Part shown: positions 36,297-60,839 of the stretch, piece after piece | Layout: the number at the start of each line of letters is the position of its first letter | Position numbering within the stretch: the stretch's first letter is position 1 | Source: a virus | Virus record (IMG/VR): IMGVR_UViG_3300042558_005646 | Length of the DNA: 64,000 nucleotides | Direction: 5' to 3' (one strand) | Program-made: the position numbers and the translations under genes | Notes under the pieces: model-generated | Database searches by the model: none | What the model was told of the DNA's origin: nothing | Seen by the model: only the letters and a program-made list of their open reading frames with translations

Positions 36297-36839
36297 TTAA
36301 TACCAAGTTTGATTGGATGGTTTATTACCGAAAAGGATAGGGTCTTGTTTACCTTTTAATGCTTGATAATATCCTTCACCATTCTTAAAATGTTGAAAGC
36401 TATTTCCTTTTTCAATTGAACCCATACTTTGTGGATCTCTATTATTGTTTTGCTGTCTTGAGCCTTCCAATTGATCTTCTAATGTTGTGACTTCAGGCGC
36501 ATCATGATATGGAGAGTGTCTACGAGCTTCTATAGATGCAGATTGAGGGGAAATAATAAATTGTCCATTATTATCCATATTCATTCTATGAGGCCGTTGA
36601 ACCAAGAGATCCCAAATTTCTTTTTGTTGTTCTTGATTCATATTGTAATATTGATCAAGAGTTTTGCCCATTTTATCTAAAATGCCAGCAAGTTCATCAT
36701 AAAGTCCTGCAGGCTCATTGTCTACATCATGAATTTCATCTATTTTAGAATTTGATGTTGAATCAATAGTGTCAAGAGGCTTTTCTCCTGACAAATTGAC
36801 GCCACCACCAATTTGGGCTAAAACTTGCTTATACCACAT
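36297..36839 (-). CDS. Putative internal head protein with MWYKQVLAQ leader
   Basis: Leader shared with three other genes; TLEDQLE repeat-like motif; in head operon. Confidence 0.5.
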   Translation of the reverse strand: MWYKQVLAQIGGGVNLSGEKPLDTIDSTSNSKIDEIHDVDNEPAGLYDELAGILDKMGKTLDQYYNMNQEQQKEIWDLLVQRPHRMNMDNNGQFIISPQSASIEARRHSPYHDAPEVTTLEDQLEGSRQQNNNRDPQSMGSIEKGNSFQHFKNGEGYYQALKGKQDPILFGNKPSNQTWY

Positions 36840-38484
36840 CGTCGTATTCTTCTCTTTTAGATTCCATGATGTAATCTAAACCAAGTTCATCAGCAAATTT
36901 CTTAAGATCATCATCTGAAAATTGATGACCAAAGCTATCTTCGTCTTCGTCATTCAATAAAGTTTCGATATTAACAGTGATCTTCTTGTTTTGTCTTGTA
37001 TCTTCTAGTTGTTTATCCATAGGAACATCAACTATATTTTTCTTTCTTGTTTCACCAAGAATTTGCTCTTGATTAAGTTCTTTTTTGGATGCAGTCTTAT
37101 CTAACTGTTGAATAATGGATTCTTTTGGTTCAGCTTTGTCTTTGTTCAATTCATCTCTGTAATTGATTGGATCTTTACCGTTGACATTCAATTGATCAGC
37201 ATAAGATTCTTCCATTTCACCACGATGAGTATAAAGTCCATCAGAATCAAGTTGATCTTCTAGTACTTCATCAGTAACAGATTCTTGGTTATTCAATTTT
37301 CTCAATAAAGCTTCAAGGTATTCTGTGCCTTTTTGTTCTTTTCTAGGAAGTTGTGAGTCAATTGTTTTCAAAGAATCAGATTGAGCTTGTTTAGGGCGCA
37401 TAACAGGCTTGTCGCCTTGTTGATGGCCATAACTGGATTGCTTGGCATCTGACAATTGTTTTTCCATTGAATCATCGACATTTTGTTTGCCTCTGATTTT
37501 ATTAGCGCCCCTATCAGAATTGTCAAATCTAGCTTCAAATCCAATTTCACCTTCAGTGAGTTTTTTGGATCTTTCGCCTTCCTTAAGTTCAAGAGCATTG
37601 GCTTCATTATCAGGATGCTTATGAACATCAAGTCTAGCCATAACTTCATCATGAGATTGGAAAGCAACTTTAAGCCAATCTTGATATGCACAAGTTACAG
37701 TTCCATCTTTGCCAACTCTTGAGTCTATACAATTTTCTCTACACTTGGATATTTCCATAGGAATTGGAGCTTTGTATCCTTGCATTTTTCCTTTAGGACA
37801 CAATAAATAAGGCTCATTGGCTTGTGTAAATAAAGTTGTATATGCAACTCTTCTATTTTCTTTTGGTGTGATTTCTGAATACCAATTGTGTAAATAGTTT
37901 GCAATTTTGACAGCTAAGTTTTTGTTTCCTGACAAAACAATTTTTCTAGCATTTGCAATTTTGCTAAGTCTAATTTCTGAAGAACAAAATGCTGTAAGTT
38001 TATCAAGTGTATTAATCGTTTCAATTTGCCAAAAACCTGATGACTTTTCACTATTCTTGTAAGCAACTCTTTCCATTCTAGCTGCTTCATTATCTTTGTT
38101 CAAGAAATTTTGAATAGCCATATATGCATAACGGAGAGTATTTCTTTCTTCAGCAACTCTAATATTGTTTAAATTATTAAATGCCTGATGTAAATGATGA
38201 TGTGCATCTTTTTTTGGAAGAGCTACTATCTTCATAATGTGCTCAGGACCACCCATATTTTTGAAGGCTGAAATTACTGGATCATCACCAAAATCATCCA
38301 TTCCTAAAACGTGAAATGGAGAAGACATTGGCATAGAATCTCCATCTCCAAGACCTGATAAAGTATCTTGAAGCATACGAAGCAATCCATTACCACCAAC
38401 TTCTGATTTTTTTTCTAAAATCTTTTCAATTTTTTCAGGATCGTGTGTCTCGTATGTAGCTTTGATTTTATATCCTTTGTCCAT
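36829..38484 (-). CDS. Putative head protein with Cys-containing middle domain and C-terminal ExQL-type repeats
   Basis: About 10 degenerate repeats (MEKQL, IDSQL, LEDQL, YADQL, IIQQL, MDKQL); RVA, KVA, KTA motifs. Confidence 0.5.
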   Translation of the reverse strand: MDKGYKIKATYETHDPEKIEKILEKKSEVGGNGLLRMLQDTLSGLGDGDSMPMSSPFHVLGMDDFGDDPVISAFKNMGGPEHIMKIVALPKKDAHHHLHQAFNNLNNIRVAEERNTLRYAYMAIQNFLNKDNEAARMERVAYKNSEKSSGFWQIETINTLDKLTAFCSSEIRLSKIANARKIVLSGNKNLAVKIANYLHNWYSEITPKENRRVAYTTLFTQANEPYLLCPKGKMQGYKAPIPMEISKCRENCIDSRVGKDGTVTCAYQDWLKVAFQSHDEVMARLDVHKHPDNEANALELKEGERSKKLTEGEIGFEARFDNSDRGANKIRGKQNVDDSMEKQLSDAKQSSYGHQQGDKPVMRPKQAQSDSLKTIDSQLPRKEQKGTEYLEALLRKLNNQESVTDEVLEDQLDSDGLYTHRGEMEESYADQLNVNGKDPINYRDELNKDKAEPKESIIQQLDKTASKKELNQEQILGETRKKNIVDVPMDKQLEDTRQNKKITVNIETLLNDEDEDSFGHQFSDDDLKKFADELGLDYIMESKREEYDDVV

Positions 38485-38486
38485 AA

Positions 38487-39476
38487 TTATTTACCCAATC
38501 CTAAGTTTGATAATTCTTCTTTATCAAAACCTCTATCCTGAAGTGCTGCCTTAATTTGTTTTAATTCTTCTGATACGCCTTTTTTATCTGCAGCATCTTT
38601 GAAATCACCTTGTTTGGTTGTTTTGGAGTAATCTTGTAAATCCATAAGAAAACAAGCTCTCATAATCAACTCAGGCGTAGATCTTTTTTCAAAATTTGGT
38701 TTTGCATTATAATCAAAAGCTGCAGTTTTTACTGAAGCATTCTTGTTACCTTTTTCTTCAGTATCATTTATCTGCTCTATTGTTTCTTCAACATCTTTAG
38801 TTTCTTTCTCGACTTCTTCTTTTTTGTCAAGTAATCTTTCAAGATCCACAACATTGGCAGTTTTTTTAGATTTTTTTGGTTTTTCTTCTTTATCTTTGCC
38901 TTGCTCTAGTTTTTTGTTGTATTCTTTAACAATATCTACAGCACGTTCAATTGTCTCTTTATTCCAGTACTTGAGTTTTGAAATGTATCTAACAATATCG
39001 TTCTTTTCGACACCGTGATCAAGCAATTTACCCACTTTACCCATTAAAACACGGAATGGATTGCCTCTAGTTTTCTTTTTCTTTTTGACCTGTGCTGTTT
39101 TTGAATTGTTGTACACGTTTTTAGCCTCGGATAAATAAGTTTCTTCAATCTTATTCGCTATATCAGAATAGCTTGGATCTAATTCTTGAGTAATTGGATC
39201 TTTAGTTCTTGTTCTACTATTATTTGACATAATTAGTGCTTTAGATAACTTATATAATTGATGTCTTAAGCTTTCATCTTGCACTCTGTCTGCTATGACA
39301 GTAACTTCATCTGAAAGTTCACCGTAGTTCTCATTAGCAGATTTGACCTTGTTCATCAACTGTCTCATTTCATCTTTGGTTACACCTTCGGCATTTTCAC
39401 CACTCAAGGGAATATTGTTAATCCCATTTGCAGGATTTGAAGCTAAAGGTGGTTCAATTTGAGACAGTTTATTCAT
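38487..39476 (-). CDS. Hypothetical head-module protein
   Basis: Coupled in head operon; KTAQ, KTAN, KTAA motifs separate charged segments. Confidence 0.5.
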   Translation of the reverse strand: MNKLSQIEPPLASNPANGINNIPLSGENAEGVTKDEMRQLMNKVKSANENYGELSDEVTVIADRVQDESLRHQLYKLSKALIMSNNSRTRTKDPITQELDPSYSDIANKIEETYLSEAKNVYNNSKTAQVKKKKKTRGNPFRVLMGKVGKLLDHGVEKNDIVRYISKLKYWNKETIERAVDIVKEYNKKLEQGKDKEEKPKKSKKTANVVDLERLLDKKEEVEKETKDVEETIEQINDTEEKGNKNASVKTAAFDYNAKPNFEKRSTPELIMRACFLMDLQDYSKTTKQGDFKDAADKKGVSEELKQIKAALQDRGFDKEELSNLGLGK

Positions 39477-40291
39477 TAATCTAAATCGTCAAAGTTTATG
39501 TCAATACTATTATAAATTTCATTAACAGTTTTAGCTCTATTTAGAGATTTACTGTTCATGTCATTTTGAATATTTTTCTTAATTGCTAATCTTTCATTTC
39601 TGATCTTTTCTTGATTTGCAATTCTCATTGATTCTCTAGAATCCAGAGCAGATGGATCTATCATTCCAAATGTAGAATTGAATTCATTGTCAGATGATGT
39701 TCTTAAGATTGAATGTGCTCTTGAGGAAACTACAGAAGATTGTCTCAAGTTATTTATTTGGCTTTCTTCCCAAGCTTTATGACGAGTTGCTTTAGCTTCT
39801 CTTACTCTTTGATTTTCAATAATCGATTGCTCGCTTGTAGAAGATTGAGAATTCAAGAATTCTTCAGAAATTGCAATCATATCAGGGTTGAAAATAGAAG
39901 CAGATCTTGACAACATTGCATTCATATATTCATCTGCTGAAAATGCTTTTAAACCACTAGTTGTAGTTCTTGCAGTCTCACCAGAATCAAATTGTGATCC
40001 AGCTCTTCTGATTGCACCAAAATCCTGTGATAAAATTCTTTCTTCCATAGAGGTTTCTCTTAAGTCTTGATAAGTAGATGGACCTTGAATTTTTTCCCAA
40101 GATTTATTGATATTATTTGCTTCTTTTGTAAAACCAATATTTTGTTTAGAGATTGACTGTCTGTTGGCCGTAGAATTTCTTTTTAACTCTGCATAAGGAT
40201 CTTCTTCAACTTCAACTTGAGCGCCAATGAATCTCTTTTCCAAGAATGTTGGAATATTTTCGATTTCTGATACTTTTCTAAATCTGCTCAT
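39476..40291 (-). CDS. Hypothetical head-module protein (coiled coil)
   Basis: Start reassigned to ATG 40291 after SD-like AGGA; begins MSRFRKVS. Confidence 0.5.
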   Translation of the reverse strand: MSRFRKVSEIENIPTFLEKRFIGAQVEVEEDPYAELKRNSTANRQSISKQNIGFTKEANNINKSWEKIQGPSTYQDLRETSMEERILSQDFGAIRRAGSQFDSGETARTTTSGLKAFSADEYMNAMLSRSASIFNPDMIAISEEFLNSQSSTSEQSIIENQRVREAKATRHKAWEESQINNLRQSSVVSSRAHSILRTSSDNEFNSTFGMIDPSALDSRESMRIANQEKIRNERLAIKKNIQNDMNSKSLNRAKTVNEIYNSIDINFDDLD

Positions 40292-40322
40292 GTTTATTAT
40301 CCTGTTGTTACTTTTCAAGAAT

Positions 40323-40346
40323 GTCCCAGGGCAAAAGCCCTGGGAC
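40323..40346. other. GC-rich intergenic hairpin (terminator or processing/stabilising stem)
   Basis: GTCCCAGGGC-aaaa-GCCCTGGGAC; T-tract stronger on the + (antisense) side. Confidence 0.7.
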
Positions 40347-40370
40347 TATTTTTCTTGAGGATTATTTTTA

Positions 40371-41441
40371 CTACTTGTCGTATTTCTTGGTGAAGAGTGC
40401 ATCAATCCACTCTTGATCACCATAACCAAGTTCATTTTTCCAGTAATCAATAATTCTGGAATAGTCTGCATCTGAAAGGGTTGCAACTTTGATCATTGAA
40501 GAAGCTGCAGCAACCTTTACATTTGTTTCAAGGCCAGAAGCAAGAACATTCTTGATATCGGATAAATTGTCAACTTCAGGTGTGGATGTTTCGCCTAATC
40601 TAGCATTTACATACTCAATTGGGAAACCTTCTGCTAAAGCCTTAGCAGCAAATGCTCTTCTTGCAGCAGATGAGAATGCTTTAACTTCCTTCATTTCTGA
40701 ATCCTTTCCGCATTCACATTTTTTGCCAGCATAAACTCCGCCACATTTTTCACATTCTTTGTCCATAGCTGCTTCTTTCTTTTCTTCCATCTTTTCAGCA
40801 ACTCTTTGAACCAAGGATTCTCTGTAAGCTTTTCTTTGTGCAAGCTTTACATTTGCCTCTTGTTGTGCTTGTACTTGGCGCTCGATTTTGCCAGCTAATC
40901 TGACTCTTCTATCATGACGAGCAGCAAGGATAGCATTCTTGAGATCTTCATCACCAGCAGCTACAGCAGCTTCTACTGCTTCAGCTGATAATTGTGATGC
41001 ATGGTTGAAGTGAAAAGCCTTCTTTTCAGCTTTAGACTTAGGACCTTTTCTCTTCATAGGACCTTTGTCAGCTTTTTCTTCATCATCATGACCTTCGTCT
41101 TCATCTTCATCTTCAGAATCTTCAGACTTCTTCTTGCCCTTGCCATTCTCTTCCATCCACTTTCTCAAGCCTTCTGGAAGACCTTTCTTGGCTTCTTTGC
41201 CCATACCTGATTTGTGATCCATCCCAGATTCAGCGTCATGATCATCGTGATCTTCGCCTTGTAATCTATCGACTTCTTCATCACCAATAGCGTCGATAAG
41301 AGCTTTGAGACCCTTGTTCTCTTTAGGCTCTTTGGCTTCAGCTAATCTTTGATTAAAGTTGTCCCAATCAATTCCTTGGAAAACCAAGTCAGAATCAAGA
41401 GGATCTTCTTGAAATCTGTTTGGGAAAATTCTATCTGCCAT
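40371..41441 (-). CDS. Hypothetical highly charged head/scaffold-like protein
   Basis: SD GAGGAG and own promoter; K/E/D-rich, CxxC..CxC, KLAQ and IKVA motifs. Confidence 0.55.
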   Translation of the reverse strand: MADRIFPNRFQEDPLDSDLVFQGIDWDNFNQRLAEAKEPKENKGLKALIDAIGDEEVDRLQGEDHDDHDAESGMDHKSGMGKEAKKGLPEGLRKWMEENGKGKKKSEDSEDEDEDEGHDDEEKADKGPMKRKGPKSKAEKKAFHFNHASQLSAEAVEAAVAAGDEDLKNAILAARHDRRVRLAGKIERQVQAQQEANVKLAQRKAYRESLVQRVAEKMEEKKEAAMDKECEKCGGVYAGKKCECGKDSEMKEVKAFSSAARRAFAAKALAEGFPIEYVNARLGETSTPEVDNLSDIKNVLASGLETNVKVAAASSMIKVATLSDADYSRIIDYWKNELGYGDQEWIDALFTKKYDK

Positions 41442-41481
41442 AATTAATTTTTCTCCTCAAGAAAAAATACATTAAGAAAAT

Positions 41482-41508
41482 TTCTAAATTTAATGCTCAA
41501 ATTCCTTT
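41482..41508 (-). promoter_or_regulatory. Putative phage-sigma promoter AAAGG-N17-TAGAA
   Basis: Intergenic, same spacing as other copies. Confidence 0.65.
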
Positions 41509-42406: not shown

Positions 42407-42865
42407 TTATCTAATTGGTAATCTATTTTTCCAACCATTTCCTTCATCAACATTTTTCTGATAGGTTTCTTCCCAAGAAAATTTATCGCACAAATCAGCT
42501 CCGCTATGAATTGCCATAGATGGGCTTGATGCTGGATTACCTGGGTCTACATAAGCAGGACCAGGAACATTATCAGGACCATGTAATTGTCCTTCTATAT
42601 TTGCACCATCAGCTTCTCCACCCAAATCCATATATTCTTTTGGAACTTTTCTAGGATTTATTTTTTGTCTCCAATAGTCATTTTGTTTTGTTTCTTCTTC
42701 TATTTCCTCATATGGAACCAAAGAAACATTTGGAGATTGAGTTATTGATTGCTGTGGATAATATTGTGCAATTTTTTCAAACAACTTATCTGACTTTAAG
42801 TATTCGCCAGATTTATCCAATCTTGAACATATTTTTATAATTGTTTGAATTGATTTAGCATTCAT
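42407..42865 (-). CDS. Putative internal head protein with LDxxG...SDK...KIAQ leader
   Basis: Leader IIKICSRLDKSGEYLKSDKLFEKIAQ aligns with that of 54056..54679. Confidence 0.5.
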   Translation of the reverse strand: MNAKSIQTIIKICSRLDKSGEYLKSDKLFEKIAQYYPQQSITQSPNVSLVPYEEIEEETKQNDYWRQKINPRKVPKEYMDLGGEADGANIEGQLHGPDNVPGPAYVDPGNPASSPSMAIHSGADLCDKFSWEETYQKNVDEGNGWKNRLPIR

Positions 42866-42877: not shown

Positions 42878-43870
42878 TTAAAGACTATGACCCGATATCC
42901 CGTAGAATGCAGATCCTGGATACGATTCTTCAACGCCTTTAGGTTCTTTGTTTGAAGGATCGATAAAATCTAAATAATTTGTATCTTTTTTCTTTGGATT
43001 CAATTGCTGTTCAAAAGAAACGAAAGGATCAATATCTTTTGTTGCTTCTGATTTAGGGGCAATATCTTTTGGCGCATATATATTTGGTTTTGTATCAGGA
43101 TCAGGGTAAGACAATAAAGTGTCTTTCAAGCCATACTCTTGGAATCCATCTTCATTTGGAGTTTTTTCAATCATCAAATGATTTATATAATCATTGAAAT
43201 CTTCACCGTGAGTTAGGATGGGAGTTTTTCCAATTGGAACATAACTAAATTGATTTTCATCAAATTCATTTCGTTCTTCAGGATATTCTTTTGTCATCCT
43301 GTTTCTTCTTGCAATTTCATAGTCTTCTGCAATACGATTTATTGACTTATCTGAAATGGCAAAATGTAATCTTTCTGGCTTATCTGGATCTTTGTATTCT
43401 TCTCTTGGATATTTGAAATCTTTATTGTATTTATGACGATCTTCTAAGGATTGCTCCATAGTCATCATATGCTCTTTTTTTGGCTGATAATGATCTCGTA
43501 TATATGCTGGACTATTTTTCATTAAGTCGCTTGCTGCATTTTCTAAAGATTTTTTGTAATTATGTAATTGAGCTCTAAATTTAGCTCTTAATCTTTCCTC
43601 AGGAGTAAGTTCGTAAGGAATTAATTCTTCATAATTTTTATGTTGTGGAGTCAATCTTGACTCTATATTGACATCTCTTGTATCAGGTTCAATATGGGTA
43701 CGTCTTAACAATTTATCGAAGCTTGAATCTTCGTCTACGTATAAATTGATTTCATGTCCACCTCGGTTTCCACCACCACGACCGATAGGACTACCACCAG
43801 GCTGAAATGGAGCTCCATTCCCTCCACCGCCTACACCACCAAATTGAGCTGTTCTGATATTGTTAGACAT
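42878..43870 (-). CDS. Putative internal head protein with MSNNIRTAQ leader and Gly-rich segment
   Basis: RTAQ motif at residues 6-9; MEQSL and FEQQL repeats; preceded by phage-sigma motif. Confidence 0.5.
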   Translation of the reverse strand: MSNNIRTAQFGGVGGGGNGAPFQPGGSPIGRGGGNRGGHEINLYVDEDSSFDKLLRRTHIEPDTRDVNIESRLTPQHKNYEELIPYELTPEERLRAKFRAQLHNYKKSLENAASDLMKNSPAYIRDHYQPKKEHMMTMEQSLEDRHKYNKDFKYPREEYKDPDKPERLHFAISDKSINRIAEDYEIARRNRMTKEYPEERNEFDENQFSYVPIGKTPILTHGEDFNDYINHLMIEKTPNEDGFQEYGLKDTLLSYPDPDTKPNIYAPKDIAPKSEATKDIDPFVSFEQQLNPKKKDTNYLDFIDPSNKEPKGVEESYPGSAFYGISGHSL

Positions 43871-43879: not shown

Positions 43880-43906
43880 TTCTTATAAATAAAAATAATT
43901 ACCTTT
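43880..43906 (-). promoter_or_regulatory. Putative phage-sigma promoter AAAGG-N17-AAGAA
   Basis: Fills the terL/next-gene gap; 9 nt before ATG 43870. Confidence 0.6.
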
Positions 43907-46016
43907 ATCTTCTATTTAAATTGACCATTTTTGATCTTGGCAATCTAATCATAATTTTAGATGTTAAGCATTCAAATGCTACAGCAGCGACTGCATCACA
44001 AATATCATCTTTATATCCAGAAAGTGCCTCAATGTAATATCTTTTGCCTTTCCATTTTTTCTGCAAAAATAAAAATTGAATTTTTGCTTCTTGTATTTCA
44101 TTTAAAGATATAAGCCTATTATCTAAATCTCTATATTCTCCACCAGGCAAATCATAAATATCAATTCGGTCATCACGGATTAATTGTGATAATTCAGTGT
44201 AAATTTTTTCCTTGTATTCTTTATTAAATTGGCGCTCTACAATTGGGACTCTTCTTGATTGCAATTTAATTAATGATGATTGAGAATTCCATTGATCAAT
44301 AGAAACTTGCTTGAATTTGAATTTATGATGTAAATCGATTACATAATCTTCAACTTCGCTTTCTTTTACAGGTTGATTTTTAGTTTTAGGATTCCAAAAA
44401 TGTACATGATCAATCACAACTCTTTTGAGTGGTTGAAAATCAGGCCCAATTTGACCATACATATTTTCAGTATGAGCAATTACAAGAGCGTAGTAGTCTG
44501 ACGTTCTGGCAGGGTCTAAGTGGCAAAAATATTCAAAATGTCCCTCTGCCATTTCTTTTCTTTTGACCATAGACATTGAAGCGAACATTCTGTCTATATC
44601 TTCAGAATTAAACATAGGGTCAGAGGATGAAGCACCAAATTCAGCTCCATACTGCATCTGAAATTCTTGAGGATCTTTCTTCTTTTGCCCATCCAACCAT
44701 TCTTTGTCAATGTTTGGATTTGTAAGCCAAGTAGGAAGTCTCATCACAAGAGTTGTTGGATCTTCTTGTCTATTTTCGTGAAGATCATATAACAACCCAA
44801 GAGGACCTTTAGGGTTGGAAAGAAGCATCATTTTGCCATCTTTACCAAATGTAGCAAGAGATGGCTTTAAGTCATCATAAAGAGCGTAGTCAACACCAGA
44901 TTCAGGATTATCTCCAGCCATAGCAGCAACTTCGTCCATAATAATTGCCCAACAAGTTAAACCAACAAGACCTGAAGCATTACTACTACCACATCGCAAT
45001 ACCAAAGAACCCGCAAAAAGATTGATATTTTGCTCTTTTCTTCTTACATTCTCTTCTCTATCATGTTCTGTATAAAATCGCATTTCAAGCTCTGTATCTT
45101 TGCCAATATAAGGAGCAAAGAATGGAGAAGCTAGAACTGTTTGTTTGATTTTTGAGAAGATTGCTTTTTTAGCCTGTTCTTCATTACGAGCAACATTGAG
45201 AAGAACAACTTCATCAAATTCCATCAAGCCATATCTAGCTTGAGGGTGACCCATAGAAATCAATCTATATAATTCATAAAGAGCCATAGCAGACACAAGG
45301 AATGACTTACCCGAACGTCTGCCAAGCACTAAAACTAATTCTTCAAATTTATATCTTTTTTTGCATTTTTCTTGAACTTGCATCCTTAATTTTGGGTCAA
45401 ATTCTTCGGAATAAAGTAAGTCGAATTCACTTTGAAAAGCATCAATTATTGGTCTTGCTTCTAATACCTCAACTTGTCTTTCAGCATCTGGGTTAGTTGC
45501 TTCATCTTTTGCAAATTTATATCTTTCATCTCTAACTTCATTTTTAAGACGCTTACATTGAAGACAAGGTGAATTGACGACATTGAAAATTGTTTTGAAT
45601 TGTCTTTTTTCTGCACGGGCTTTTAAAAATTCATTTTCGTTCTTTTGGATATAATCCCAAACACATCCTTTGCAATCTTCTTGATTGTCAGATTCATTTA
45701 TTACAAGGTTAGTATTGCCTTCTTGCCCCATATAAAAACATTTAAGTATAAGTTTTTGCCAAGGATAAGGTCTTAGATTACAAAAATATGGATGTTCAAT
45801 AAATGTAATAATGTCTACAATTTGGTCAGGGTTAAATCTGTCTTTAGGAGGTTTGACTGGAGGTGCTACTTCTTGTCTTGTAGCAGGAGCAATTTCATCT
45901 ACAAAATCTTCGGCATATTCCGTGCCTTTGAATAATTCTGTAACTGAATTTGCTTGCTGTAATAATTGACTTCGTAATTCGTTTGAAGATTTAACGACTG
46001 GAGTTGGCTTTCTCAT
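43905..46016 (-). CDS. terL: Terminase large subunit
   Basis: PYPWQ adenine-binding motif, LGRRSGKS Walker A, IIMDEVA Walker B, LLSNP motif III, QYGAEF, HLDPARTSDYYA nuclease, DDICDAVA. Confidence 0.92.
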   Translation of the reverse strand: MRKPTPVVKSSNELRSQLLQQANSVTELFKGTEYAEDFVDEIAPATRQEVAPPVKPPKDRFNPDQIVDIITFIEHPYFCNLRPYPWQKLILKCFYMGQEGNTNLVINESDNQEDCKGCVWDYIQKNENEFLKARAEKRQFKTIFNVVNSPCLQCKRLKNEVRDERYKFAKDEATNPDAERQVEVLEARPIIDAFQSEFDLLYSEEFDPKLRMQVQEKCKKRYKFEELVLVLGRRSGKSFLVSAMALYELYRLISMGHPQARYGLMEFDEVVLLNVARNEEQAKKAIFSKIKQTVLASPFFAPYIGKDTELEMRFYTEHDREENVRRKEQNINLFAGSLVLRCGSSNASGLVGLTCWAIIMDEVAAMAGDNPESGVDYALYDDLKPSLATFGKDGKMMLLSNPKGPLGLLYDLHENRQEDPTTLVMRLPTWLTNPNIDKEWLDGQKKKDPQEFQMQYGAEFGASSSDPMFNSEDIDRMFASMSMVKRKEMAEGHFEYFCHLDPARTSDYYALVIAHTENMYGQIGPDFQPLKRVVIDHVHFWNPKTKNQPVKESEVEDYVIDLHHKFKFKQVSIDQWNSQSSLIKLQSRRVPIVERQFNKEYKEKIYTELSQLIRDDRIDIYDLPGGEYRDLDNRLISLNEIQEAKIQFLFLQKKWKGKRYYIEALSGYKDDICDAVAAVAFECLTSKIMIRLPRSKMVNLNRR

Positions 46017-47615: not shown

Positions 47616-47642
47616 AAAGGTTAAATTAGTACATTTGTAAAA
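47616..47642 (+). promoter_or_regulatory. Putative phage-sigma promoter AAAGG-N17-TAAAA
   Basis: Same 17-nt spacing; 10 nt before MWYS gene ATG. Confidence 0.5.
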
Positions 47643-47652: not shown

Positions 47653-50364
47653 ATGTGGTACTCAAAAATTATCGAATCTGCAACAGCCTGGGACGTTTTA
47701 TCTACTAAAGAAGTTTTGTGGGCTGGCTCTTTCTCTAGAACTTTCAAAGATTTTTCATTTTACGATCCAAATGAAAACCCTACTATGACTGCTATGCTCA
47801 AGTTTATAGGAGATATAGAAAAGGGCAGAACTGGTGATTCAATTATTGATAAATATCTTGAGAAAGCGAAAAATGACGGCAGTACTTTGTCTGACATTTC
47901 AATTTTTTCTTATAATTTATCAAAATTTATTGATAATGAAATGAAAAAACAAGGAAGTTCTGCTAATACAGATATGATGAAAGTATTAGACTTTCTTGGC
48001 AAACTCAATGAATATATAAAATCAAGAGGCGGAAATGGCATAGAACTTGGTGATAGAATTCCAGATATTGACAAAGTAAAATCATCTGTCAATAGCACTC
48101 TTGGTATGGGATTTACCACATTAAATTTACTCTTGAAAAAAGGCACGAGTATGAATGAGGCACTAGCTATGTTTATCATTCGTGGAGATGATGTTAACTT
48201 ACTAGGATATCCTCTTTCTCAACAAAGAAACTTGCTTGTTTATCAACTTCTTGAAGCCAGACCAGAATTAGAATATTTTCAAAATCAAGAAAATGTTGTA
48301 AATTTAATTAGACGTGGAGAGGGAAAATTCTATTTTCCAAACATCAAAGAATACATTTTTTCAGGTATTACCGAAAGCAAAATTTTAGAAATTGTTTTTG
48401 AGTTATTATTGAAAGATTTTGATCAAGTAGATGTTGCAAGTATGCTTCACTATCTTCCAAACAAAACTCAAATTAACGTAGCTGTAAAAATCGATGAATA
48501 CCCACAGTACGATAGATTTTGCCAAAATATAGCAGAAAAGTTATACTCAAGTATCGGTGAGTATGATTTTGATCAAGATGTTTTATTAATAAGAAAACTT
48601 AAATCTTTCAAAAAATTTATGGATCTTATTGATAGTAAAGGTGATCAATGCTCTCCTTTATTTATAATCAAGGGAATTGCAAAACCACAAGTTATTATAA
48701 ATTATTTAGATAAAAATCCAGAAGATTATGAAAAATTTGATGTTAATTTATTAGACAGCCTTGGCAGTGAAATTAAAAACCAAATTCAACAAAAAGGCAA
48801 AGCTGCAAAAGCCAGAATTCAATCTGATGGTTTTGCTCTTTTAGAAAAAGCACAACAAGAAGGAGTTATAAAAATAATTAAAGCTTCTGACACTGCTTTT
48901 AATTATGCTTACGGAAAAGGACCAAAAAGAGACCCAGCACCACAAGGTATGTCTGAAAGCGAACAAAGACAAAAAGAAAAGTCTGATGAAATATTTTCAA
49001 AGTTCCAACAGTCATATGAAGATCGTATGCAACAAGAAGCTCCATTTGCTGGCGTAAGTACTGAAGATATAAGTAAATATGCTGATCAAATGGTGATTGT
49101 AGAATTTAGCACTTATAGCTTAAAGAATTTTATGCGAGAAAATAATGTGCCTAAATTAAAAATAGGTCCTGTAGATTTTACTGATGAGAAATGGGGTGGA
49201 TTATTTGTACCTAAATTTCCAACAAAAGATATGGGTCCACGTCCAGCAATTATTATCAAAACAGATATATGGTCTCAATTAGCTTTTCATAGAAAATTAG
49301 CTGAAAATATTGGAATGGATGCTAATCATTATCTTGAAGCCACTAAAAGACACGAAGTAGCTCACGCATTACAGTATCTTCAATCTGGAGATTTGATGAT
49401 GGAAGATTCTGTAGCTTTAAATCCAGAATTGACTCCTGAAGAAGCTTACATATCTGATCCTTCTGAACTATATGCAAGAATTCACGGAGATATACCTTAT
49501 CTGGCTAGAATCTTTGATGCTCATATTGGAAAATTGATGGCAGATCCAAAAATCTATCAAGCTGCCAAAGAACAATGGATTCTAGATATCCAGGATGAAA
49601 TGATTCACTTGATGTCAGGTGGAACAAATGCTAAAAGATTACTTGAAGATATGGAGACTGGTAGATTTGGAACTTACACCTCATCTACAGGACAAACAAT
49701 TACATTAACTGATCCTCTTGAAGTAATTAATAAAAAATTACAGCGTCAAAGAAACAGATTGGAAATGATTTTTCACGAGACTTTTCAAATTCAAGGAAGA
49801 CGTGATTATAGAAGAGGGTTGATTGGTAAGAAAAATCAATTAGCTCAACAAATTGAATCTACCCCTATTTATTCTTCTGAAAGAACCAAACTCGAAAAAG
49901 AATTAAAAGAAGTTGAAACAAATTTAGTTGAATCAGGGAGAATGCTTATCTTTGATGTGAAAGATGTATCTGAGGCTGTAGTTGAGGGATATTTAGCAGA
50001 TTACTATAGCAAAATTGCGAAAGCTGTAGCAGATGGCTTACTTACAACAGATACAATTAATCCTCAAGGCGAAGATCAAAGAGTAGAAAATCAGCAATTA
50101 CGTGAAGAAGCTAAAAAACAAGAACCACCAACAGCACAAGACATTAAACAACACGCAAGATTTCAAATTCAACAAACAGAGCCTATCCCGAGTGGCAGAA
50201 AGATTGACGTTATTATTCCAAGATATAAAGGTACTGGAAGACCACCTGGCAATTTTCCAGGCTTTGATGATGCAGAAAAAGATGATCAACAAGTTGATAT
50301 TACTATAGAAAGAAAAGAAGACAAAATTGCTAGCGTTTTCAATTACAGAAAATTAATCAAATAA
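47653..50364 (+). CDS. Large protein with MWYS leader and zincin metallopeptidase domain
   Basis: RHEVAHALQ (HExxH, nt 49351-49365) followed by YISDPSELYARI; C-terminal KIASVFNYRK. Confidence 0.65.
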   Translation: MWYSKIIESATAWDVLSTKEVLWAGSFSRTFKDFSFYDPNENPTMTAMLKFIGDIEKGRTGDSIIDKYLEKAKNDGSTLSDISIFSYNLSKFIDNEMKKQGSSANTDMMKVLDFLGKLNEYIKSRGGNGIELGDRIPDIDKVKSSVNSTLGMGFTTLNLLLKKGTSMNEALAMFIIRGDDVNLLGYPLSQQRNLLVYQLLEARPELEYFQNQENVVNLIRRGEGKFYFPNIKEYIFSGITESKILEIVFELLLKDFDQVDVASMLHYLPNKTQINVAVKIDEYPQYDRFCQNIAEKLYSSIGEYDFDQDVLLIRKLKSFKKFMDLIDSKGDQCSPLFIIKGIAKPQVIINYLDKNPEDYEKFDVNLLDSLGSEIKNQIQQKGKAAKARIQSDGFALLEKAQQEGVIKIIKASDTAFNYAYGKGPKRDPAPQGMSESEQRQKEKSDEIFSKFQQSYEDRMQQEAPFAGVSTEDISKYADQMVIVEFSTYSLKNFMRENNVPKLKIGPVDFTDEKWGGLFVPKFPTKDMGPRPAIIIKTDIWSQLAFHRKLAENIGMDANHYLEATKRHEVAHALQYLQSGDLMMEDSVALNPELTPEEAYISDPSELYARIHGDIPYLARIFDAHIGKLMADPKIYQAAKEQWILDIQDEMIHLMSGGTNAKRLLEDMETGRFGTYTSSTGQTITLTDPLEVINKKLQRQRNRLEMIFHETFQIQGRRDYRRGLIGKKNQLAQQIESTPIYSSERTKLEKELKEVETNLVESGRMLIFDVKDVSEAVVEGYLADYYSKIAKAVADGLLTTDTINPQGEDQRVENQQLREEAKKQEPPTAQDIKQHARFQIQQTEPIPSGRKIDVIIPRYKGTGRPPGNFPGFDDAEKDDQQVDITIERKEDKIASVFNYRKLIK

Positions 50365-50919
50365 GAAATCTTCACCAAGAATTAGTTTCATTTGTTCAAG
50401 GGCTTTTGATAATCTTTTTGAAAAAGCCCCTTGAGTAATACCTAGAGTTTCAGCACATTCTTTTTGATCTAATCCATCGAAGAAATAGACTTGGATTACT
50501 TCCTTGCTTTTTTCACTCAATTGATCCATAGCTTGATGTATACAAATTACATTGTCAATCTTATTAAATGGATCTTCATATTCTTCAGGAAAATAATCAT
50601 CATCTGAAATTTCTTCTTTTGGGAAATATTTATCAGCGGTATATCTGAATAAATTTATGTCTATTCTTGTTGATAAGAAATAAGAAAAATAAGATAACTT
50701 TGGATCATATTGGTCGATTAATTTCTTGAGAACAAATATAGAATCACTTAAAATATCTTCTCTATGCGAAGAAAGCCGAGATTCTTTTTGAACAATTCTT
50801 TTAACTGATGAAATAAAGAGAGGTTTATAGAATTCATATAATTCAAAAAGTGCTTCTTCATTTCCAGCTTTGTATTTATGTAAAAGCTGGTTGATCTCAT
50901 CGTAATTATTCTCGGCCAT
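50353..50919 (-). CDS. RNA polymerase sigma-70 family factor (regions 2 and 4 only)
   Basis: KYKAGNEEALFELY, DQYDPKLSYFSYFL, LSEKSKEVIQVYFFDGLDQKECAETLGITQ HTH. Confidence 0.85.
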   Translation of the reverse strand: MAENNYDEINQLLHKYKAGNEEALFELYEFYKPLFISSVKRIVQKESRLSSHREDILSDSIFVLKKLIDQYDPKLSYFSYFLSTRIDINLFRYTADKYFPKEEISDDDYFPEEYEDPFNKIDNVICIHQAMDQLSEKSKEVIQVYFFDGLDQKECAETLGITQGAFSKRLSKALEQMKLILGEDFLFD

Positions 50920-54055: not shown

Positions 54056-54679
54056 TTATAATTCTATGTCTTTTTCTTCGTCAAAAAACTCTCTATCATC
54101 AATACCATTTACAACAACATCAACGTGTGTATCTGGGAATTTTTGTCGAACTTTTTCCATTGCTTCTTCTTTGCTGTAATCTTCAAGGGTCAAATTTGAA
54201 GTGAAAACTACATCGTGAGAAATTTCTTCGGCATCTTCTTCCTCACCATATAAATTTTCTAATCCAGGGATAGAAAGCTGATCTGTTAAGAGTTTGCCCT
54301 CTTTGTCAGAACCTTTTGATAATGATTTTAATGATAAAGGATCTAAAAAGAAAAATTTCCATACTCCACTTTCAGGAAATAAAATAATTTGAGGATAAAT
54401 TGCAAAATGTCTTCTTGTTCCTTTGGATCTTTCAACAAGTTGTTCCATAGGATCTTTTGATGGATCTACAGTGAACTTTTCATCTCCAAGAACCTCTACA
54501 ATATCTCTGCCTTGTTTTCTTGCTTTAGTTAATGCAAAATCAGAATATGTCTCTGGATTTCTATACACAGTATCAAAGTCTAAATCTGATTGATCTATTG
54601 CAACTTTGGTAAATTTGTCAGCAAGTTTGAAGCATCCTAAATTGTCTAGGATAGAAGCAGTGCGAAGAAAATTTATCAT
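54056..54679 (-). CDS. Hypothetical protein with LDxxG...ADK...KVA leader (putative virion cargo)
   Basis: MINFLRTASILDNLGCFKLADKFTKVA; leader matches 42407..42865. Confidence 0.55.
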   Translation of the reverse strand: MINFLRTASILDNLGCFKLADKFTKVAIDQSDLDFDTVYRNPETYSDFALTKARKQGRDIVEVLGDEKFTVDPSKDPMEQLVERSKGTRRHFAIYPQIILFPESGVWKFFFLDPLSLKSLSKGSDKEGKLLTDQLSIPGLENLYGEEEDAEEISHDVVFTSNLTLEDYSKEEAMEKVRQKFPDTHVDVVVNGIDDREFFDEEKDIEL

Positions 54680-56467: not shown

Positions 56468-56939
56468 CTTCCATTGGTAAAATTAAAGGTAAAGCGTGAG
56501 TGCCATCCAACAATGAAGGCAATCCATCTTTCAATATCCAGTATGGACCATATCCGGCTCTAACAAAGTATTCTGTAATAAAGCCAAAATCCTGTACATC
56601 GAATGAACGAATTTTACCATCTTGTGAAGGACTTATAGAGTACAAGCAACGGAAAATAATCCATTCTTTTTTTGACTGCTCTAATTCTTCCCAGAGATCA
56701 GACCAGACTCCAAGGCAATAAACTTTACCATTGCCAAGAGATTGTAAAATTCCCCTAGCCCAAGATTGAGTTAACCCCGACATAATATATGGCGGGGCAT
56801 TCTTTCCTTTATATCCATCCATTTCAACAAAGTGAACTAAATCTAAGTTTACATATCCTATAAATGGATAATATTTAGAAATAAGTTTTTCTGCAATTTC
56901 TTTGCATTCAATAGATTCAATAAATTCTGGATCACTCAT
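56457..56939 (-). CDS. Phage metallopeptidase-like protein with degenerate HExxH
   Basis: W..L...KEWIIFRCLYSI...KIRSFDVQDF matches the layout of the ...LIDHELxH...HDVEEF family. Confidence 0.5.
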   Translation of the reverse strand: MSDPEFIESIECKEIAEKLISKYYPFIGYVNLDLVHFVEMDGYKGKNAPPYIMSGLTQSWARGILQSLGNGKVYCLGVWSDLWEELEQSKKEWIIFRCLYSISPSQDGKIRSFDVQDFGFITEYFVRAGYGPYWILKDGLPSLLDGTHALPLILPMEDDD

Positions 56940-57271
56940 AATGATAACTGAGTAACTGCTACAACTTGACCACTCTCATCACGAATTGCTGTTGGACCTG
57001 TATCTACACTAAATACATCTTCACGATCAAATGGAATGAACTCCATTGATACTCTGTTGACTATGTAATAAACACCATCTTCAGGATCAGGAAGATTTAC
57101 AATCTTTTCAAAATGAGTTTCAGCAACAGGAACGCTTGCAACTTTACCAATAATTCTTTGTTTAGTTTGAACAAAGCAAGGATTTTCTGCCCTTGGTAAA
57201 GTTCCATATCCTGAAATTGTAATATCGTGTCCAATTAAGTTCACAAATTTTTTAAATTCTGGATACATCAT
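56936..57271 (-). CDS. Small conserved phage protein, possible Crn4-like ring nuclease
   Basis: VNLIGHDI...LPDPEDGVYYIV...RED...IRDESGQVVAV. Confidence 0.4.
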   Translation of the reverse strand: MMYPEFKKFVNLIGHDITISGYGTLPRAENPCFVQTKQRIIGKVASVPVAETHFEKIVNLPDPEDGVYYIVNRVSMEFIPFDREDVFSVDTGPTAIRDESGQVVAVTQLSL

Positions 57272-57645
57272 AAATCTATCCCTGCTACACCTTCATTGCG
57301 CTTTGGCTGACAAACAAAGGCTGACTGATCTCCATTAGCTCTCAAATCATTTATAAGAACTCTAGACCCACCGCCAATGCCCATTACTAATTGATCATAA
57401 ACAATACCAGCATAAGAAAGCTGCTTGACTGTTACATCTCGCAAGCTTTCTTTACGTCCAGTAGTAAGAATGATCTTATAGCCTTTGCTATCCCATTCAC
57501 GAACCTTGTCTACGGTTCCGTGAATAATTTTAGGTTGATATCCAGGTTTGGCAATTTCAGTAGGATCACCTTGTTCCCAAAGTGTTCCATCTAAATCACA
57601 AAAAATAGTGTAATTCTTTGTGGCTTGGTCAATGTTATGTTCCAT
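57268..57645 (-). CDS. Short cap-less HAD-superfamily phosphatase
   Basis: FCDLDGTL, LTTGR, INDL. Confidence 0.8.
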   Translation of the reverse strand: MEHNIDQATKNYTIFCDLDGTLWEQGDPTEIAKPGYQPKIIHGTVDKVREWDSKGYKIILTTGRKESLRDVTVKQLSYAGIVYDQLVMGIGGGSRVLINDLRANGDQSAFVCQPKRNEGVAGIDL

Positions 57646-58166
57646 TACTTACCTGTACTACCCAATCCACCCTTGCGGGATGTCTTGTCAGTTGAAGTAA
57701 ATTCTTCAACTTCTACAAGTTCGTGATCTGCCAACTTTGCTACAACCATTTGAGCAATTCGATCACCATGCTTGATTGAAAATGGAATCTTGTTGTGGTT
57801 AATAAGAATAACCTTAAGTTCAAAATCTTCTCCATCGCCACAATAATCACTGTCAATAGTGCCTGGAGTATTGAGAACTGTGACGCCAAATTTTGCAGCT
57901 AAACCGGAACGAGGGCGAATTTGGATCTCGTACCCATTTGGAATATTTACATTCAAGCCAGTAGGAACAATCAAAGTTGAATGTGGAGCAATAAGAGTTT
58001 GCTCATCATAAGATTCCTTAAGCCAAGCACAAAGATCATACCCAGCAGCACTCTCAGTTGCCTTCTTGGGAATTACTGCGCTCTCACGAAAAGCTTTAAT
58101 TTCAACTGTTGCCTTAGCAACAGTAGGCATATTTACTGTAACTTGTCCACTACCTGATGCAGCCAT
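57645..58166 (-). CDS. dut: Trimeric dUTPase
   Basis: AGYDL, RSGLA, GTIDSDY, RIAQ, RKGGLGSTG; start ATG 58166. Confidence 0.92.
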   Translation of the reverse strand: MAASGSGQVTVNMPTVAKATVEIKAFRESAVIPKKATESAAGYDLCAWLKESYDEQTLIAPHSTLIVPTGLNVNIPNGYEIQIRPRSGLAAKFGVTVLNTPGTIDSDYCGDGEDFELKVILINHNKIPFSIKHGDRIAQMVVAKLADHELVEVEEFTSTDKTSRKGGLGSTGK

Positions 58167-58167
58167 A

Positions 58168-58485
58168 TTAAATTCCTTCCTCATTCTTAATCATATCGGC
58201 AGTAATCTCTTCATCATCTGGATTGAAGATAAGAGATAATGGATGTTCACGATTCTTGAGAGCAATCGAAAAATTGATAAGTTCTCTACCTTCCAAATAA
58301 CGATCCATTTTGGTCAATTCTTTGATATCATCCAACGATAAAACAGCAGCATAAACTCTTTCAGACTTTACATCTTGAAGTTGAAGCCAAATAAATTGAA
58401 CAATTGTAGGCTCATCTTCAGTGCCTTCATCTTCTTTCAATACTGCATCTAAAATTTTTACTTCTCTAACTACTGATTTTGCCAT
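58168..58485 (-). CDS. Hypothetical protein
   Basis: 105-aa acidic ORF heading the dut-dnaX-sigH run; own -10 element. Confidence 0.6.
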   Translation of the reverse strand: MAKSVVREVKILDAVLKEDEGTEDEPTIVQFIWLQLQDVKSERVYAAVLSLDDIKELTKMDRYLEGRELINFSIALKNREHPLSLIFNPDDEEITADMIKNEEGI

Positions 58486-58491
58486 ACAAGG

Positions 58492-58500
58492 ATTTTACCA
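58492..58500 (-). promoter_or_regulatory. Extended -10 (TGGTAAAAT) 6 nt before ATG 58485
   Basis: In divergent intergenic gap; no SD. Confidence 0.6.
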
Positions 58501-58522
58501 CAACATATAGTAAAAGTAAATT

Positions 58523-60475
58523 ATGTGGTATAGAATTGCACAAGAAAGATCTGTATTTAGACCTAGAGAATGGAAAAGTGAAGTTAAAAAAGAAGCTGAT
58601 GGTACATCACTAACTTTTTATAGTCCTGCTAGACGTGTAAAAAATAAAACAAAATATGACCCAAGAGGTTCTTATTTTGGATTTTATCAAGAATATCCAA
58701 ATATAAGAATTTTATTCAAATATCCTAAAGATTATGGGTCTTTGGATGATCCTTATAATAATATGTTAGAGTTTAATATACCGCAATCAGAAATAAACGA
58801 GATATTAAAAAGAGTTCTCAATGTATTATCCAAATATAATAAAGGTTTTTTCCATGGTGAGACTATTGTAAATATTGTCTCTGAAATTCATCCTGATAAA
58901 GCTTCTGGGGTTAAACCTGCAGCATTTGCTGAATTAGGTGGTAATAAAGTTTTCTCTGACAAAGATAGTATTGCAATGGCGTTGGATCACGAAATTGGAC
59001 ATCTTTTAACAGATTTTCAACCACTTGATGAAGAAAAAAAAATGATGACAGAAGGTTCTCCATCAATTTATGGTGAGGAGAGCTACAAGGAAGCTTTTGC
59101 TGAGGCATTTGAACTTCTGATGAAAAAGGGATACAATTTCAGATTTGAAGAAACTTCTCAAAATAACATTAAACAAAATAAACTTTTAGATTATGTTCGA
59201 AAAAAAATAAACCCTTCGGATTTTATAAATTTACAATTTACCGAACCTGTCGAAAGTGGAAAATTTAATTTTAATGAAAATAAAGAAAAAGATTTATCTG
59301 ATTATAATGCAGCTAGACATACTGCTTTAGTTGGCGCTTTTCAAAATGCCATAGATAAATTCAAGGGTGATAAAAATTCTTATGCAAAATCTTTATTATC
59401 AAATAAACAAAAAATTAACGAAATAGTCAAATATGTTAATGGATTGATGATGTTTATCAACAATCCTGCAAATCAAAAAGAAATAGATTTAGCTGTTAAA
59501 ACAATTGGTATATCTTCTGATAAAAAACCTAATCCTAATTCTTTTAATATTAATGGGACAAGATTTAATAAAATACTTGAAAAAGATGCGAGTACAAGTG
59601 TAAGTAAATTTTATTTACCAAAAGCAATCAAAGACTTTATAGACATTAATATTGGAATGGCAAAATATTATGGACCTTCCAAAGTGCTTAACTCATTAAT
59701 TTCTCAACCTAAACCTTATCATCCATTAGATGAATATATGCCAACTGAGTTATCTTACTTAGAAAAAGATCCAAAAAACTTTGGAGAATTTTGGGATCCT
59801 AGATACTCTATTAACAAAATACCAAAAAATAAATTAAATAAAATTCCACAAGTCTCTGTTTTTGATCAACTTGTACCAGTTGATGAGTTGGAATATAAAA
59901 TTGGTCAAAGCATTATCAATGCAAGCTCTTCAAAAAATAACACTTATTTAAACGATAGTTTTGAAATTGAATATCTAGCTAATAATTTAATAAAACAAAT
60001 TTTTCCTCCACTTAATTATAAAAATCCAGAAGACTATCTTTATTACGATTTTCATTTAGATAGCTCTGGAGATTATAGTTTAGACACAAATGCAGTGGAA
60101 CAAAAAATAAACAATGCAATTAACACAAGCGAATTTACAAAAAAAATGAATGACGCTCAAAAGAAAAAAATTGCATATGAATTGCGAACAAGAATAAATA
60201 GAGTTAAAAATTCTCATACAAATATATTAAACAAAACCATAGAAGAAGGAGATATTTTTGGAGATTCAAGCTTATTCCCAGGCGGTAAGTTTAGAAATAT
60301 TGGATCAAGCATAAATGTAGCTAAACAAGCAGTAGACAAATTATTTACTGCAAAAATTCCAAGAAGAAATTTATTATTTATGAGAATTTATAACAATACT
60401 GGAATATCTGAAAAACAAAAACAAGAATTGTTAAATTACTACAAATCCAAACAAGCGCAAGTTTTAAGGAAATAA
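58523..60475 (+). CDS. Protein with MWYRIAQ leader and zincin metallopeptidase motif
   Basis: LDHEIGHLL (HExxH, nt 58988-59002) followed by KEAFAEAF. Confidence 0.65.
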   Translation: MWYRIAQERSVFRPREWKSEVKKEADGTSLTFYSPARRVKNKTKYDPRGSYFGFYQEYPNIRILFKYPKDYGSLDDPYNNMLEFNIPQSEINEILKRVLNVLSKYNKGFFHGETIVNIVSEIHPDKASGVKPAAFAELGGNKVFSDKDSIAMALDHEIGHLLTDFQPLDEEKKMMTEGSPSIYGEESYKEAFAEAFELLMKKGYNFRFEETSQNNIKQNKLLDYVRKKINPSDFINLQFTEPVESGKFNFNENKEKDLSDYNAARHTALVGAFQNAIDKFKGDKNSYAKSLLSNKQKINEIVKYVNGLMMFINNPANQKEIDLAVKTIGISSDKKPNPNSFNINGTRFNKILEKDASTSVSKFYLPKAIKDFIDINIGMAKYYGPSKVLNSLISQPKPYHPLDEYMPTELSYLEKDPKNFGEFWDPRYSINKIPKNKLNKIPQVSVFDQLVPVDELEYKIGQSIINASSSKNNTYLNDSFEIEYLANNLIKQIFPPLNYKNPEDYLYYDFHLDSSGDYSLDTNAVEQKINNAINTSEFTKKMNDAQKKKIAYELRTRINRVKNSHTNILNKTIEEGDIFGDSSLFPGGKFRNIGSSINVAKQAVDKLFTAKIPRRNLLFMRIYNNTGISEKQKQELLNYYKSKQAQVLRK

Positions 60476-60476
60476 T

Positions 60477-60839
60477 ATGTGGTACAAATTTGCCCAAGAA
60501 CAAAATGATATTCTAGAATTAATCAATTTCTTCATAAATAAATATCCAGAAATTGTTTTAAGAATCAATGAATATGAAAACAAAATCAAATTAGATAAAA
60601 TATTTATCCCCAAAGAAATGAGAGGGATTGGCATAGGAACAGAAATAATTACTGCTCTTAAAGAATATAGCCAAAGAGTAAACAAACCAATTGTCCTCAA
60701 CCCTGAACCTGAAAAAGGTAAAAAAGGTGCTCTTCAAAGATTTTATGAGCGAAATGAATTTGTAGATAATGCTGGAAGAAGAAAAGATTATGATTTAACA
60801 GACACATTTTCCAGAACTATGTACTATAAACCAAAATAA
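60477..60839 (+). CDS. GNAT-fold acetyltransferase with MWYKFAQ leader
   Basis: IFIPKEMRGIGIGTEII acetyl-CoA motif A; LQRFYERNEF. Confidence 0.8.
   Translation: MWYKFAQEQNDILELINFFINKYPEIVLRINEYENKIKLDKIFIPKEMRGIGIGTEIITALKEYSQRVNKPIVLNPEPEKGKKGALQRFYERNEFVDNAGRRKDYDLTDTFSRTMYYKPK

Follow-up and report, generated by a model that had tools for sequence, protein, structure and literature searches.

The 64-kb stretch of viral DNA held in IMG/VR as record IMGVR_UViG_3300042558_005646 (hereafter the window, with about 66 genes) belongs to an uncultured giant phage, a relative of Bacillus phage G, and encodes four otherwise dissimilar proteins that begin with the residues Met-Trp-Tyr. We find that this N-terminal tag – canonically M-W-Y-[KR]-x-[AS]-[QS] – is real, modular, and under selection at the protein level, and that its ending is enriched in head proteins. 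It is somewhat probable that the tag is a head-targeting leader similar to the capsid targeting sequence (CTS) of phage T4, and is removed by the phage's own prohead protease. The principle is already known, from the T4 CTS and from the propeptides of phages phiKZ and SPN3US. A literature search found no paper with the MWY tag, in agreement with an earlier sequence-only reading of the window, whose author knew of no description of it.

A recurrent N-terminal tag on unrelated proteins

The window has four occurrences of ATGTGGTAY, counting both strands, and all four are the first start codons of long open reading frames (ORFs). The four MWY starts lie where the sequence-only reading had placed them, at 36839 on the minus strand and at 47653, 58523 and 60477 on the plus strand. 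They compare with about 0.03 expected among the 66 window genes from composition (W 1.13%, Y 4.5%), and because so few are expected, finding four or more has a Poisson probability of about 5e-8. A 358-kb relative (89% complete) has 15 MWY starts among 413 genes where 0.2 would be expected, and MWY is its commonest N-terminal tripeptide. Counting such starts against background, a check that the earlier reading had recommended, thus gives an excess in both genomes. In each of five large relatives, ATGTGGTAY is also commoner than the reversed pattern that served as control (17 versus 2, 18 versus 7, 24 versus 7, 9 versus 2, and 11 versus 0). An IMG/VR-wide scan for ATGTGGTAYARANNNGCNCAR returned 66 matches, spread over 64 stretches. 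About 54 are ORF starts, mostly on low-GC jumbo-phage contigs of up to 441 kb; the remainder, mainly from higher-GC contigs, are short frames or lie internally.

With the first 12 residues removed, 95 non-identical tagged proteins fall into 33 families that have no mutual BLAST similarity, and different Pfam folds are represented among them. The four window proteins are in four different families, which bears out the earlier statement that they are unlike each other after the leader. Some tagged genes do stand in tandem (the 358-kb relative has five consecutive ones), as paralogues with one N-terminus might, but chance and common descent are both refuted by the frequency of the tag and the 33 unrelated families, and we give them practically no weight.

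In the family of the 650-residue window protein the tag is invariant, though the bodies of the homologues fall to 28% identity. Of ten related records examined, nine keep the tagged gene next to the portal gene, at portal identities as low as 46%; it begins with GTG in one of these (G006), and the tenth record (G007, portal 45%) has an untagged gene of 140 codons at this position. Within the tag, Tyr is encoded by TAT 21 times and by TAC 15 times, Lys/Arg by five different codons and Ala by four, and W-Y-[KR] is retained behind GTG and probable TTG starts. Because synonymous codons vary freely and these alternative starts keep W-Y-[KR], selection acts on the peptide. Conservation at the level of nucleotides or translation, say through a 5′ element in leaderless mRNAs, would be compatible with the -10-like GTAAAA located 8-11 nucleotides (nt) before the ATG of several tagged genes. 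However, many tagged genes lie inside operons and have no GTAAAA motif, and with the free codon variation, the alternative starts, and a peptide that stays constant while the bodies diverge, we regard such an explanation as very improbable.

The ending of the tag recurs in head proteins

The motif [KR][TIVLFMY]A[SQ] is found 31 times in the window versus 5.1 ± 2.1 times in shuffled proteins, so that it is more frequent than composition predicts. It occurs 77 times in the 358-kb relative versus 28.4 ± 4.6 in shuffled proteins. For [KR]TA[SQ] the counts are 11 versus 0.7. Taken by position, Q is enriched 3.0-fold, S 1.6-fold, A 2.7-fold, K/R 2.2-fold, and T/V/I/L about 2-fold, and I/V ahead of the basic residue are also enriched. 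Sites in the window are concentrated in a 554-residue protein (five), the protease-fusion protein (six), and the portal (five), and their positions are conserved in orthologues from phages with portals at 45-70% identity. Conserved sites include IKTAS, VRLAQ, AKIAS, VKTAS and SKYAQ in the fusion protein, EKTAS and TRTAS in the 554-residue protein, and FYKVAS / NYRLAS / AYRIAQ in the portal linker.

The recurring element had been described earlier as an aromatic-x-[KR]-x-A core, and the strings quoted in that reading are present (MYKVAK, HFAKIAS, QFVKTAL and SKYAQ in the protease, FYKVAS in the portal, and MSNNIRTAQ in the product of 42878-43870). The [KR]xA[SQ] part of that description stands, being enriched and conserved, but the aromatic part does not: there is no enrichment of internal WY[KR]x[AS] or of [FWY]x[KR]x[AS] in general, and enrichment is confined to the [KR]xA[SQ] core. 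Since internal WY[KR]x[AS] is not enriched, the Met-Trp-Tyr part is specific to the N-terminus and the ending is a general site, which hints at two functions, docking and release. The motif is moreover 4-5 times commoner in the first ten residues of proteins than internally, and N-termini from the head modules of diverged relatives include MSNNIRTAQ, MSSKNIKTAQ, MKGLRTAQ, MSKRIAQ, MAKKTAQ and MIRKQAQ.

These head-protein sites bear on a rather unlikely alternative, that tagged proteins dock to some hub elsewhere than in the capsid, or are singled out by the tag for turnover (as a ClpX-type N-degron or an Hsp70/DnaJ client signal), and that the tag resembles the head motif by coincidence. W-Y-K-L is similar to the ClpX N-motif-1 form (hydrophobic-hydrophobic-basic-hydrophobic), and the 358-kb relative encodes a phage ClpP (G009:C1:206392-206925). 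ClpP is present, however, in only one of four tag-bearing relatives and in neither of the two 100%-complete genomes, and was rejected as the partner of the tag on the first of these counts. Such a role would also leave unexplained the 6-8-fold enrichment of the same ending in portal, scaffold-like, and protease-fusion proteins, and the location of a tagged gene beside the portal gene.

Several related starts and sites were noted. Conserved [FY][KR]xA[SQ] and VRTAS sites in the portal linker (window 33894-34700) precede a DUF559/Vsr-like endonuclease domain, so the portal nuclease may be cut free at maturation. Head-module proteins of distant relatives, some of them marine, start with MKFNLSKVAQ, MKKAQNQ or MRKYAQPK, and short [KR]xA[QS] leaders therefore extend well beyond the MWY clade. 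The contig of a distant protease relative (L188, 173 kb, from IMG/VR) contains at 18195-18680 an ORF with M-N-W-Y-K-L-S-Q at an internal Met. Five head-module proteins encoded by genes gp5-gp20 of Bacillus phage G (L160:3500-18000), namely gp5, gp9, gp10, gp17 and gp20, start with [ST]-R-[LI]-K-K-[IVT], and gp10 continues with F-D-G-G-G-G, comparable to the Gly linker behind window leaders; this start may represent a 'dialect' of the leader system that is particular to that lineage.

Natural exchange of leaders

Two proteins, P0181 and P0180, have bodies that are 79% identical from 'AQSNQTYRFI' onward and different leaders, MWYKEAQ in P0181 and a 32-residue helical leader ending ...KLAIDQAQ in P0180. 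A second exchange is seen in a family of 131-residue proteins, in which MWYRKAQ/DMSVPFYRYP (a slash marks the junction) is matched in four relatives by a helical leader ending ...EKFAQ/DMS, ...ERIAQ/DMS, ...DRIAQ/DMS or ...LKLAQ/DMS. In a third family, the counterpart of the tag (NYKIA/VTKVDPSGQ) is preceded by about 70 additional N-terminal residues. The helical leader (about 30 residues) itself opens with a tag-like element, M-x-x-F-L-K-I-S-Q, and is present on two window proteins (54056-54679 and 42407-42865). From these natural swaps it follows that the short tag and the helical leader can stand in for one another as modules that end alike, with the module boundary at A-Q; the swaps show modularity only.

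A leader serving purely as a processing site, whose trimming by the prohead protease or a different peptidase activates or stabilises the enzymes and which plays no part in head entry, is unlikely but deserves attention here because the cut-site-like motif is the core common to all leaders. Hydrophobic residues ahead of K/R are also mildly enriched internally, so that W-Y could simply be the optimal P5-P4. The loss of six residues adjoining a folded domain has no obvious activating effect, though, and WY is strictly N-terminal, while the exchange with a 30-residue helical leader suggests more than a cut site. A prohead protease is, furthermore, normally active only in proheads, and the status of substrate would thus imply location in the head.

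The prohead protease and its family

The protease that would act on these sites is, on structure prediction, of the T4 gp21/herpesvirus assemblin fold. The best Foldseek matches of an AF2 model of residues 1-300 (pLDDT 85.7) are 5jbl (T4 gp21) and herpesvirus assemblins, with probabilities of 0.92-1.0 and E-values of only 2e-3 to 1e-2; the protein's own N-terminal leader (1-16, 30-43) is modelled at low confidence. Among annotated proteases of cultured phages, the nearest come from Dickeya, Erwinia and Burkholderia jumbo phages and are labelled 'prohead core protein protease' and 'head maturation protease'; the window domain is 27-29% identical to annotated jumbo-phage 'prohead core protein protease'. 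The closest matches overall are unannotated genes of cluster-C-type mycobacteriophages. A complex prediction for protease residues 45-300 with a 40-residue tagged N-terminus (both as alignments) gave no support for an interaction (score 0.02, mark 0.32), a result that counts neither for nor against one.

Of 1.84 billion cluster representatives, 2987 are relatives of this domain, most of them fusion proteins of 1000-2600 residues. In 113 diverged fusion proteins (of at least 900 residues), [KR][TIVLMF]A[SQ] occurs 517 times versus 66 expected. Their N-termini follow the pattern M-[LIAF]-x-[KR]-x-A (66 of the 113 have K/R as the fourth residue and 42 have Ala as the sixth) and so share the form of the tag, M-W-Y-[KR]-x-A. 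These motif statistics predict the specificity of a large and unstudied protease-fusion family (about 3000 representatives).

In the window protein, sites at K30 (IKTAS) and R304 (VRLAQ) stand on either side of the protease domain, and others are at 551, 773, 968 and 1145. The flanking pair recalls the herpesvirus release site. Assemblins head a protease-scaffold polyprotein and cut after Ala, at YLQA/T and at VQA/S, of the form V-x-A/S (PMC4498786). By analogy, the scissile bond is likely to be [KR]-x-A/[QS], although cleavage after Q would, with the assemblins as a guide, be as likely as [KR]xA/Q. The consensus of the protease family (window 32869-33768) also has a Cys-rich insert within the fold, C-S-x-C-x-N-K-A ... 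Y-C-x-H, which is possibly a zinc ribbon.

An upstream promoter-like motif

A bipartite motif, AAGGnTT followed after 12-16 nt by (A/T)GTAAAA and ending about 5-11 nt ahead of an ATG, is found in the window and in three relatives (G001, G003, and the 358-kb G009). In a relaxed scan of the window and G009, eight of ten genes behind the motif are tagged or leader-bearing. A stricter scan gave nine genes starting no more than 60 nt away, seven of them MWY genes and an eighth with an FRKIAA leader. The spacing of the motif would give leaderless or very short-leader mRNAs.

A proposed route into the head

We infer the role of the motif as the protease's site, the exact scissile bond, docking, packaging, and injection; the course of events would be as follows. 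M-W-Y-[KR]-x-[AS]-[QS] would act as a modular N-terminal leader, with Met-Trp-Tyr as the docking element and the last four residues as the site cut by the prohead protease that the phage encodes as the N-terminal domain of the 1378-residue protein. Leader-bearing proteins would be recruited to the prohead core during assembly, as with the T4 CTS, the protease-core protein and the 554-residue protein being candidate docking receptors. The protease would then remove the leader, most likely at [KR]-x-A/Q, and the freed enzymes would remain in the head and enter the host with the DNA.

Several observations weigh against this head-targeting reading. Two of the four window tags depart from K-x-A-Q: MWYKQVLAQ has two extra residues and MWYSKIIESA lacks the ending. 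Most tagged genes are outside the head module and often on the opposite strand. The bipartite motif does precede both 47653 and 58523, but it was not found ahead of the head genes in the window and so gives no support to co-expression with these, and the earlier name of 'virion-gene promoter motif' is not confirmed. In some tagged proteins no linker separates the tag from the first strand of the folded domain (which begins at residue 9 in a NUDIX protein and at residue 12 in a kinase), and cleavage may therefore be hindered; others (2-hydroxyacid dehydrogenase, kinases, NUDIX) look metabolic and are not obvious injected effectors. The specificity ascribed to the protease is, lastly, one that we infer from motif statistics alone.

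A broader version of the head-targeting reading is more tentative, and on balance we doubt it: that a clade of uncultivated 250-440-kb phages uses a protease-removable code, with interchangeable short and helical forms, to load 30 or more unrelated host-takeover enzymes, the tags docking as pseudo-substrates on the protease-core protein while it is still inactive, the N-terminus of that protein being of the same form as the tag. If this version holds, the tag would be the shortest known portable capsid-loading signal. If the tag works as a removable head-targeting leader at all, 6-7 residues would suffice to put arbitrary enzymes into a large phage capsid and to free them there. That would explain how many host-takeover enzymes are delivered with giant-phage DNA, would provide a simple rule for spotting genes of injected proteins in uncultivated jumbo phages, and would make available a minimal handle with which foreign proteins could be packaged in phage particles.

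The tagged proteins

Most tagged proteins have a single domain and are 74-386 residues long. Pfam domains on them include PF18760 ART-PolyVal, PF18823 InPase, PF14284 PcfJ (twice), AAA_33 kinase, GNAT, and 2-hydroxyacid dehydrogenase, with NUDIX both alone and together with HAD_SAK_2. The features of a Sec or Tat signal peptide, a basic N-region and then a hydrophobic core of some ten residues or more, are not seen in the tag, which has 6-7 residues followed directly by polar sequence or a folded domain.

Two kinds of enzyme had been named among the four window proteins. The GNAT label of the 120-residue protein falls short in Pfam (25.7 against a cut-off of 27 bits) and is upheld by phrog_10691 at an E-value of 1e-12. 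Both large proteins contain HExxH, as expected of zincins, but a match to the fold is weak and confined to the 650-residue protein. Its predicted structure is of moderate quality (pLDDT 64), with a disordered tag, and weakly matches zincins of the lethal-factor/PPEP type; no match to this protein was found among cultured phages, or in IMG/VR by peptide patterns. For the 180-residue protein, a protein atlas search gave no usable match.

The C-termini of three of the four have features of their own. A conserved KQAQ site is located 7 residues from the end of the 650-residue protein (window 60455-60475), and another conserved motif site, DKIAS (K891), 12 residues from the end of the 903-residue protein (window 50320-50364). 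In close relatives the 180-residue protein ends in a conserved ...PSNQTW[YF] (window 36297-36320), giving aromatic residues at both termini.

Comparison with known systems

The T4 CTS has the sequence MKTYQEFIAE, to which MWY[KR]xAQ has no likeness, and T4 cuts after Glu; the tag is thus an analogue and not a homologue. It is also shorter, at 6-7 residues, with an apparent A-Q/S around the cut, occurs on at least 33 families rather than on four T4 proteins, and has an interchangeable form of about 30 helical residues. In both systems, though, a short N-terminal peptide is shared by unrelated proteins, the cargo includes an ADP-ribosyltransferase, and the protease is predicted to have the same gp21/assemblin fold. 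The ending of the tag, 6-8-fold enriched and conserved in head proteins, would take the place of the T4 processing site. As summarised in PMC7411985 (after Mullaney and Black 1996), the CTS of T4 IPI-III and Alt is an N-terminal peptide of about 10-20 residues that brings its protein into the prohead core, ends in the prohead protease consensus and is then removed.

In the jumbo phages phiKZ and SPN3US, gp175 and gp245 respectively remove the propeptides of head and ejection proteins at A-x-E (PMC7411985, PMC10052503). The likeness is in the processing of many head-internal or ejected proteins at a short consensus by a gp21-like protease. Their propeptides are, by contrast, long and different from protein to protein, with no common minimal tag described, and the cut is after Glu.

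Herpesvirus pUL26 resembles the window protein in the fusion of an N-terminal assemblin-fold protease to a long assembly protein (PMC4498786). It processes itself with Ala at P1 (YLQA/T, VQA/S), which may be compared with FYKVA-S and WYKxA-Q. In the window protein, conserved sites (K30, R304) flank the protease domain. The fused part is far longer in the window family (1100-2300 residues) and the P3 residue is basic. We know of no herpesvirus that loads unrelated enzymes by means of a copy of the site.

Encapsulin cargo-loading peptides, in most cases C-terminal, attach directly to the shell protein and stay in place. As proposed for the tag, these short terminal peptides direct arbitrary enzymes into an HK97-fold shell, but the tag is N-terminal and proposed to be removed.

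The domain repertoire of the tagged proteins – ART-PolyVal, InPase, PcfJ, NUDIX, GNAT, and zincin-type – is that of the polyvalent proteins (Iyer et al. 2017; PMC5512222), whose ART, InPase, NUDIX, GNAT, and zincin-like peptidase domains are predicted to be packaged and injected. Polyvalent proteins carry 2-15 domains in one polypeptide, whereas here they are on separate tagged proteins, an 'unbundled' form.

The window and its head module

The nearest cultured phage is Bacillus phage G, with a portal 28% identical and the same gene order. IMG/VR contains close relatives, and CheckV completeness estimates imply genomes of about 350 kb. The head and packaging module occupies 26 to 47.5 kb on the minus strand, in the order large terminase, several small genes, the tagged 180-codon gene, portal, protease fusion, the 554-residue protein, a 216-residue protein, and the major capsid protein (Table 1).

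Table 1. Genes, motifs, and sites of the window (aa, amino acids)
Feature	Position	Strand	Remarks
Tagged 180-aa protein	36297..36839	-	MWYKQVLAQ (codons 36813-36839), then GGG linker; directly upstream of portal gene
Tagged 903-aa protein	47653..50364	+	Variant tag MWYSKIIESA; HEVAH at residue 567
Tagged 650-aa protein	58523..60475	+	Canonical tag MWYRIAQ; N-terminal zincin-like domain, HEIGH at 156
Tagged 120-aa GNAT-like protein	60477..60839	+	MWYKFAQ
Bipartite promoter-like motif, AAGGnTT-N-(A/T)GTAAAA	58488..58515	+	Ends 8 nt before ATG of 650-aa gene
Similar bipartite motif	~47617-47642	+	10 nt before 903-aa gene
Large terminase	43905-46016	-	Head/packaging module
330-aa head-module protein	42878..43870	-	Starts MSNNIRTAQ, then Gly-rich linker; short leader without MWY
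152-aa head-module protein	42407..42865	-	Helical leader, ends EKIAQ at residues 30-34
Portal with C-terminal DUF559/Vsr-like domain	33894..36263	-	
Portal linker site FYKVAS	34563-34580 (residues 562-567)		Conserved [FY]-[KR]-x-A-[SQ]
Protease-fusion (core) protein, 1378 aa	29632..33768	-	Starts MYKVAK; protease core ~residues 50-300
554-aa protein, candidate scaffold	27812..29476	-	Between protease and decoration/capsid genes
Motif sites of 554-aa protein (five)			K38, R216, K235, K494, R514
Major capsid protein, 284 aa	26241..27095	-	Without delta domain, without motif site
207-aa protein	54056..54679	-	Long helical leader MINFLRTAS-ILDNLG-FKLADK...KVAIDQ

A sigma-factor-like gene of 188 codons (window 50353-50919) is located between tagged genes. 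Many non-head genes have a -10-like element, GGTAAAAT / GGTATAAT, 8-12 nt ahead of their ATG.

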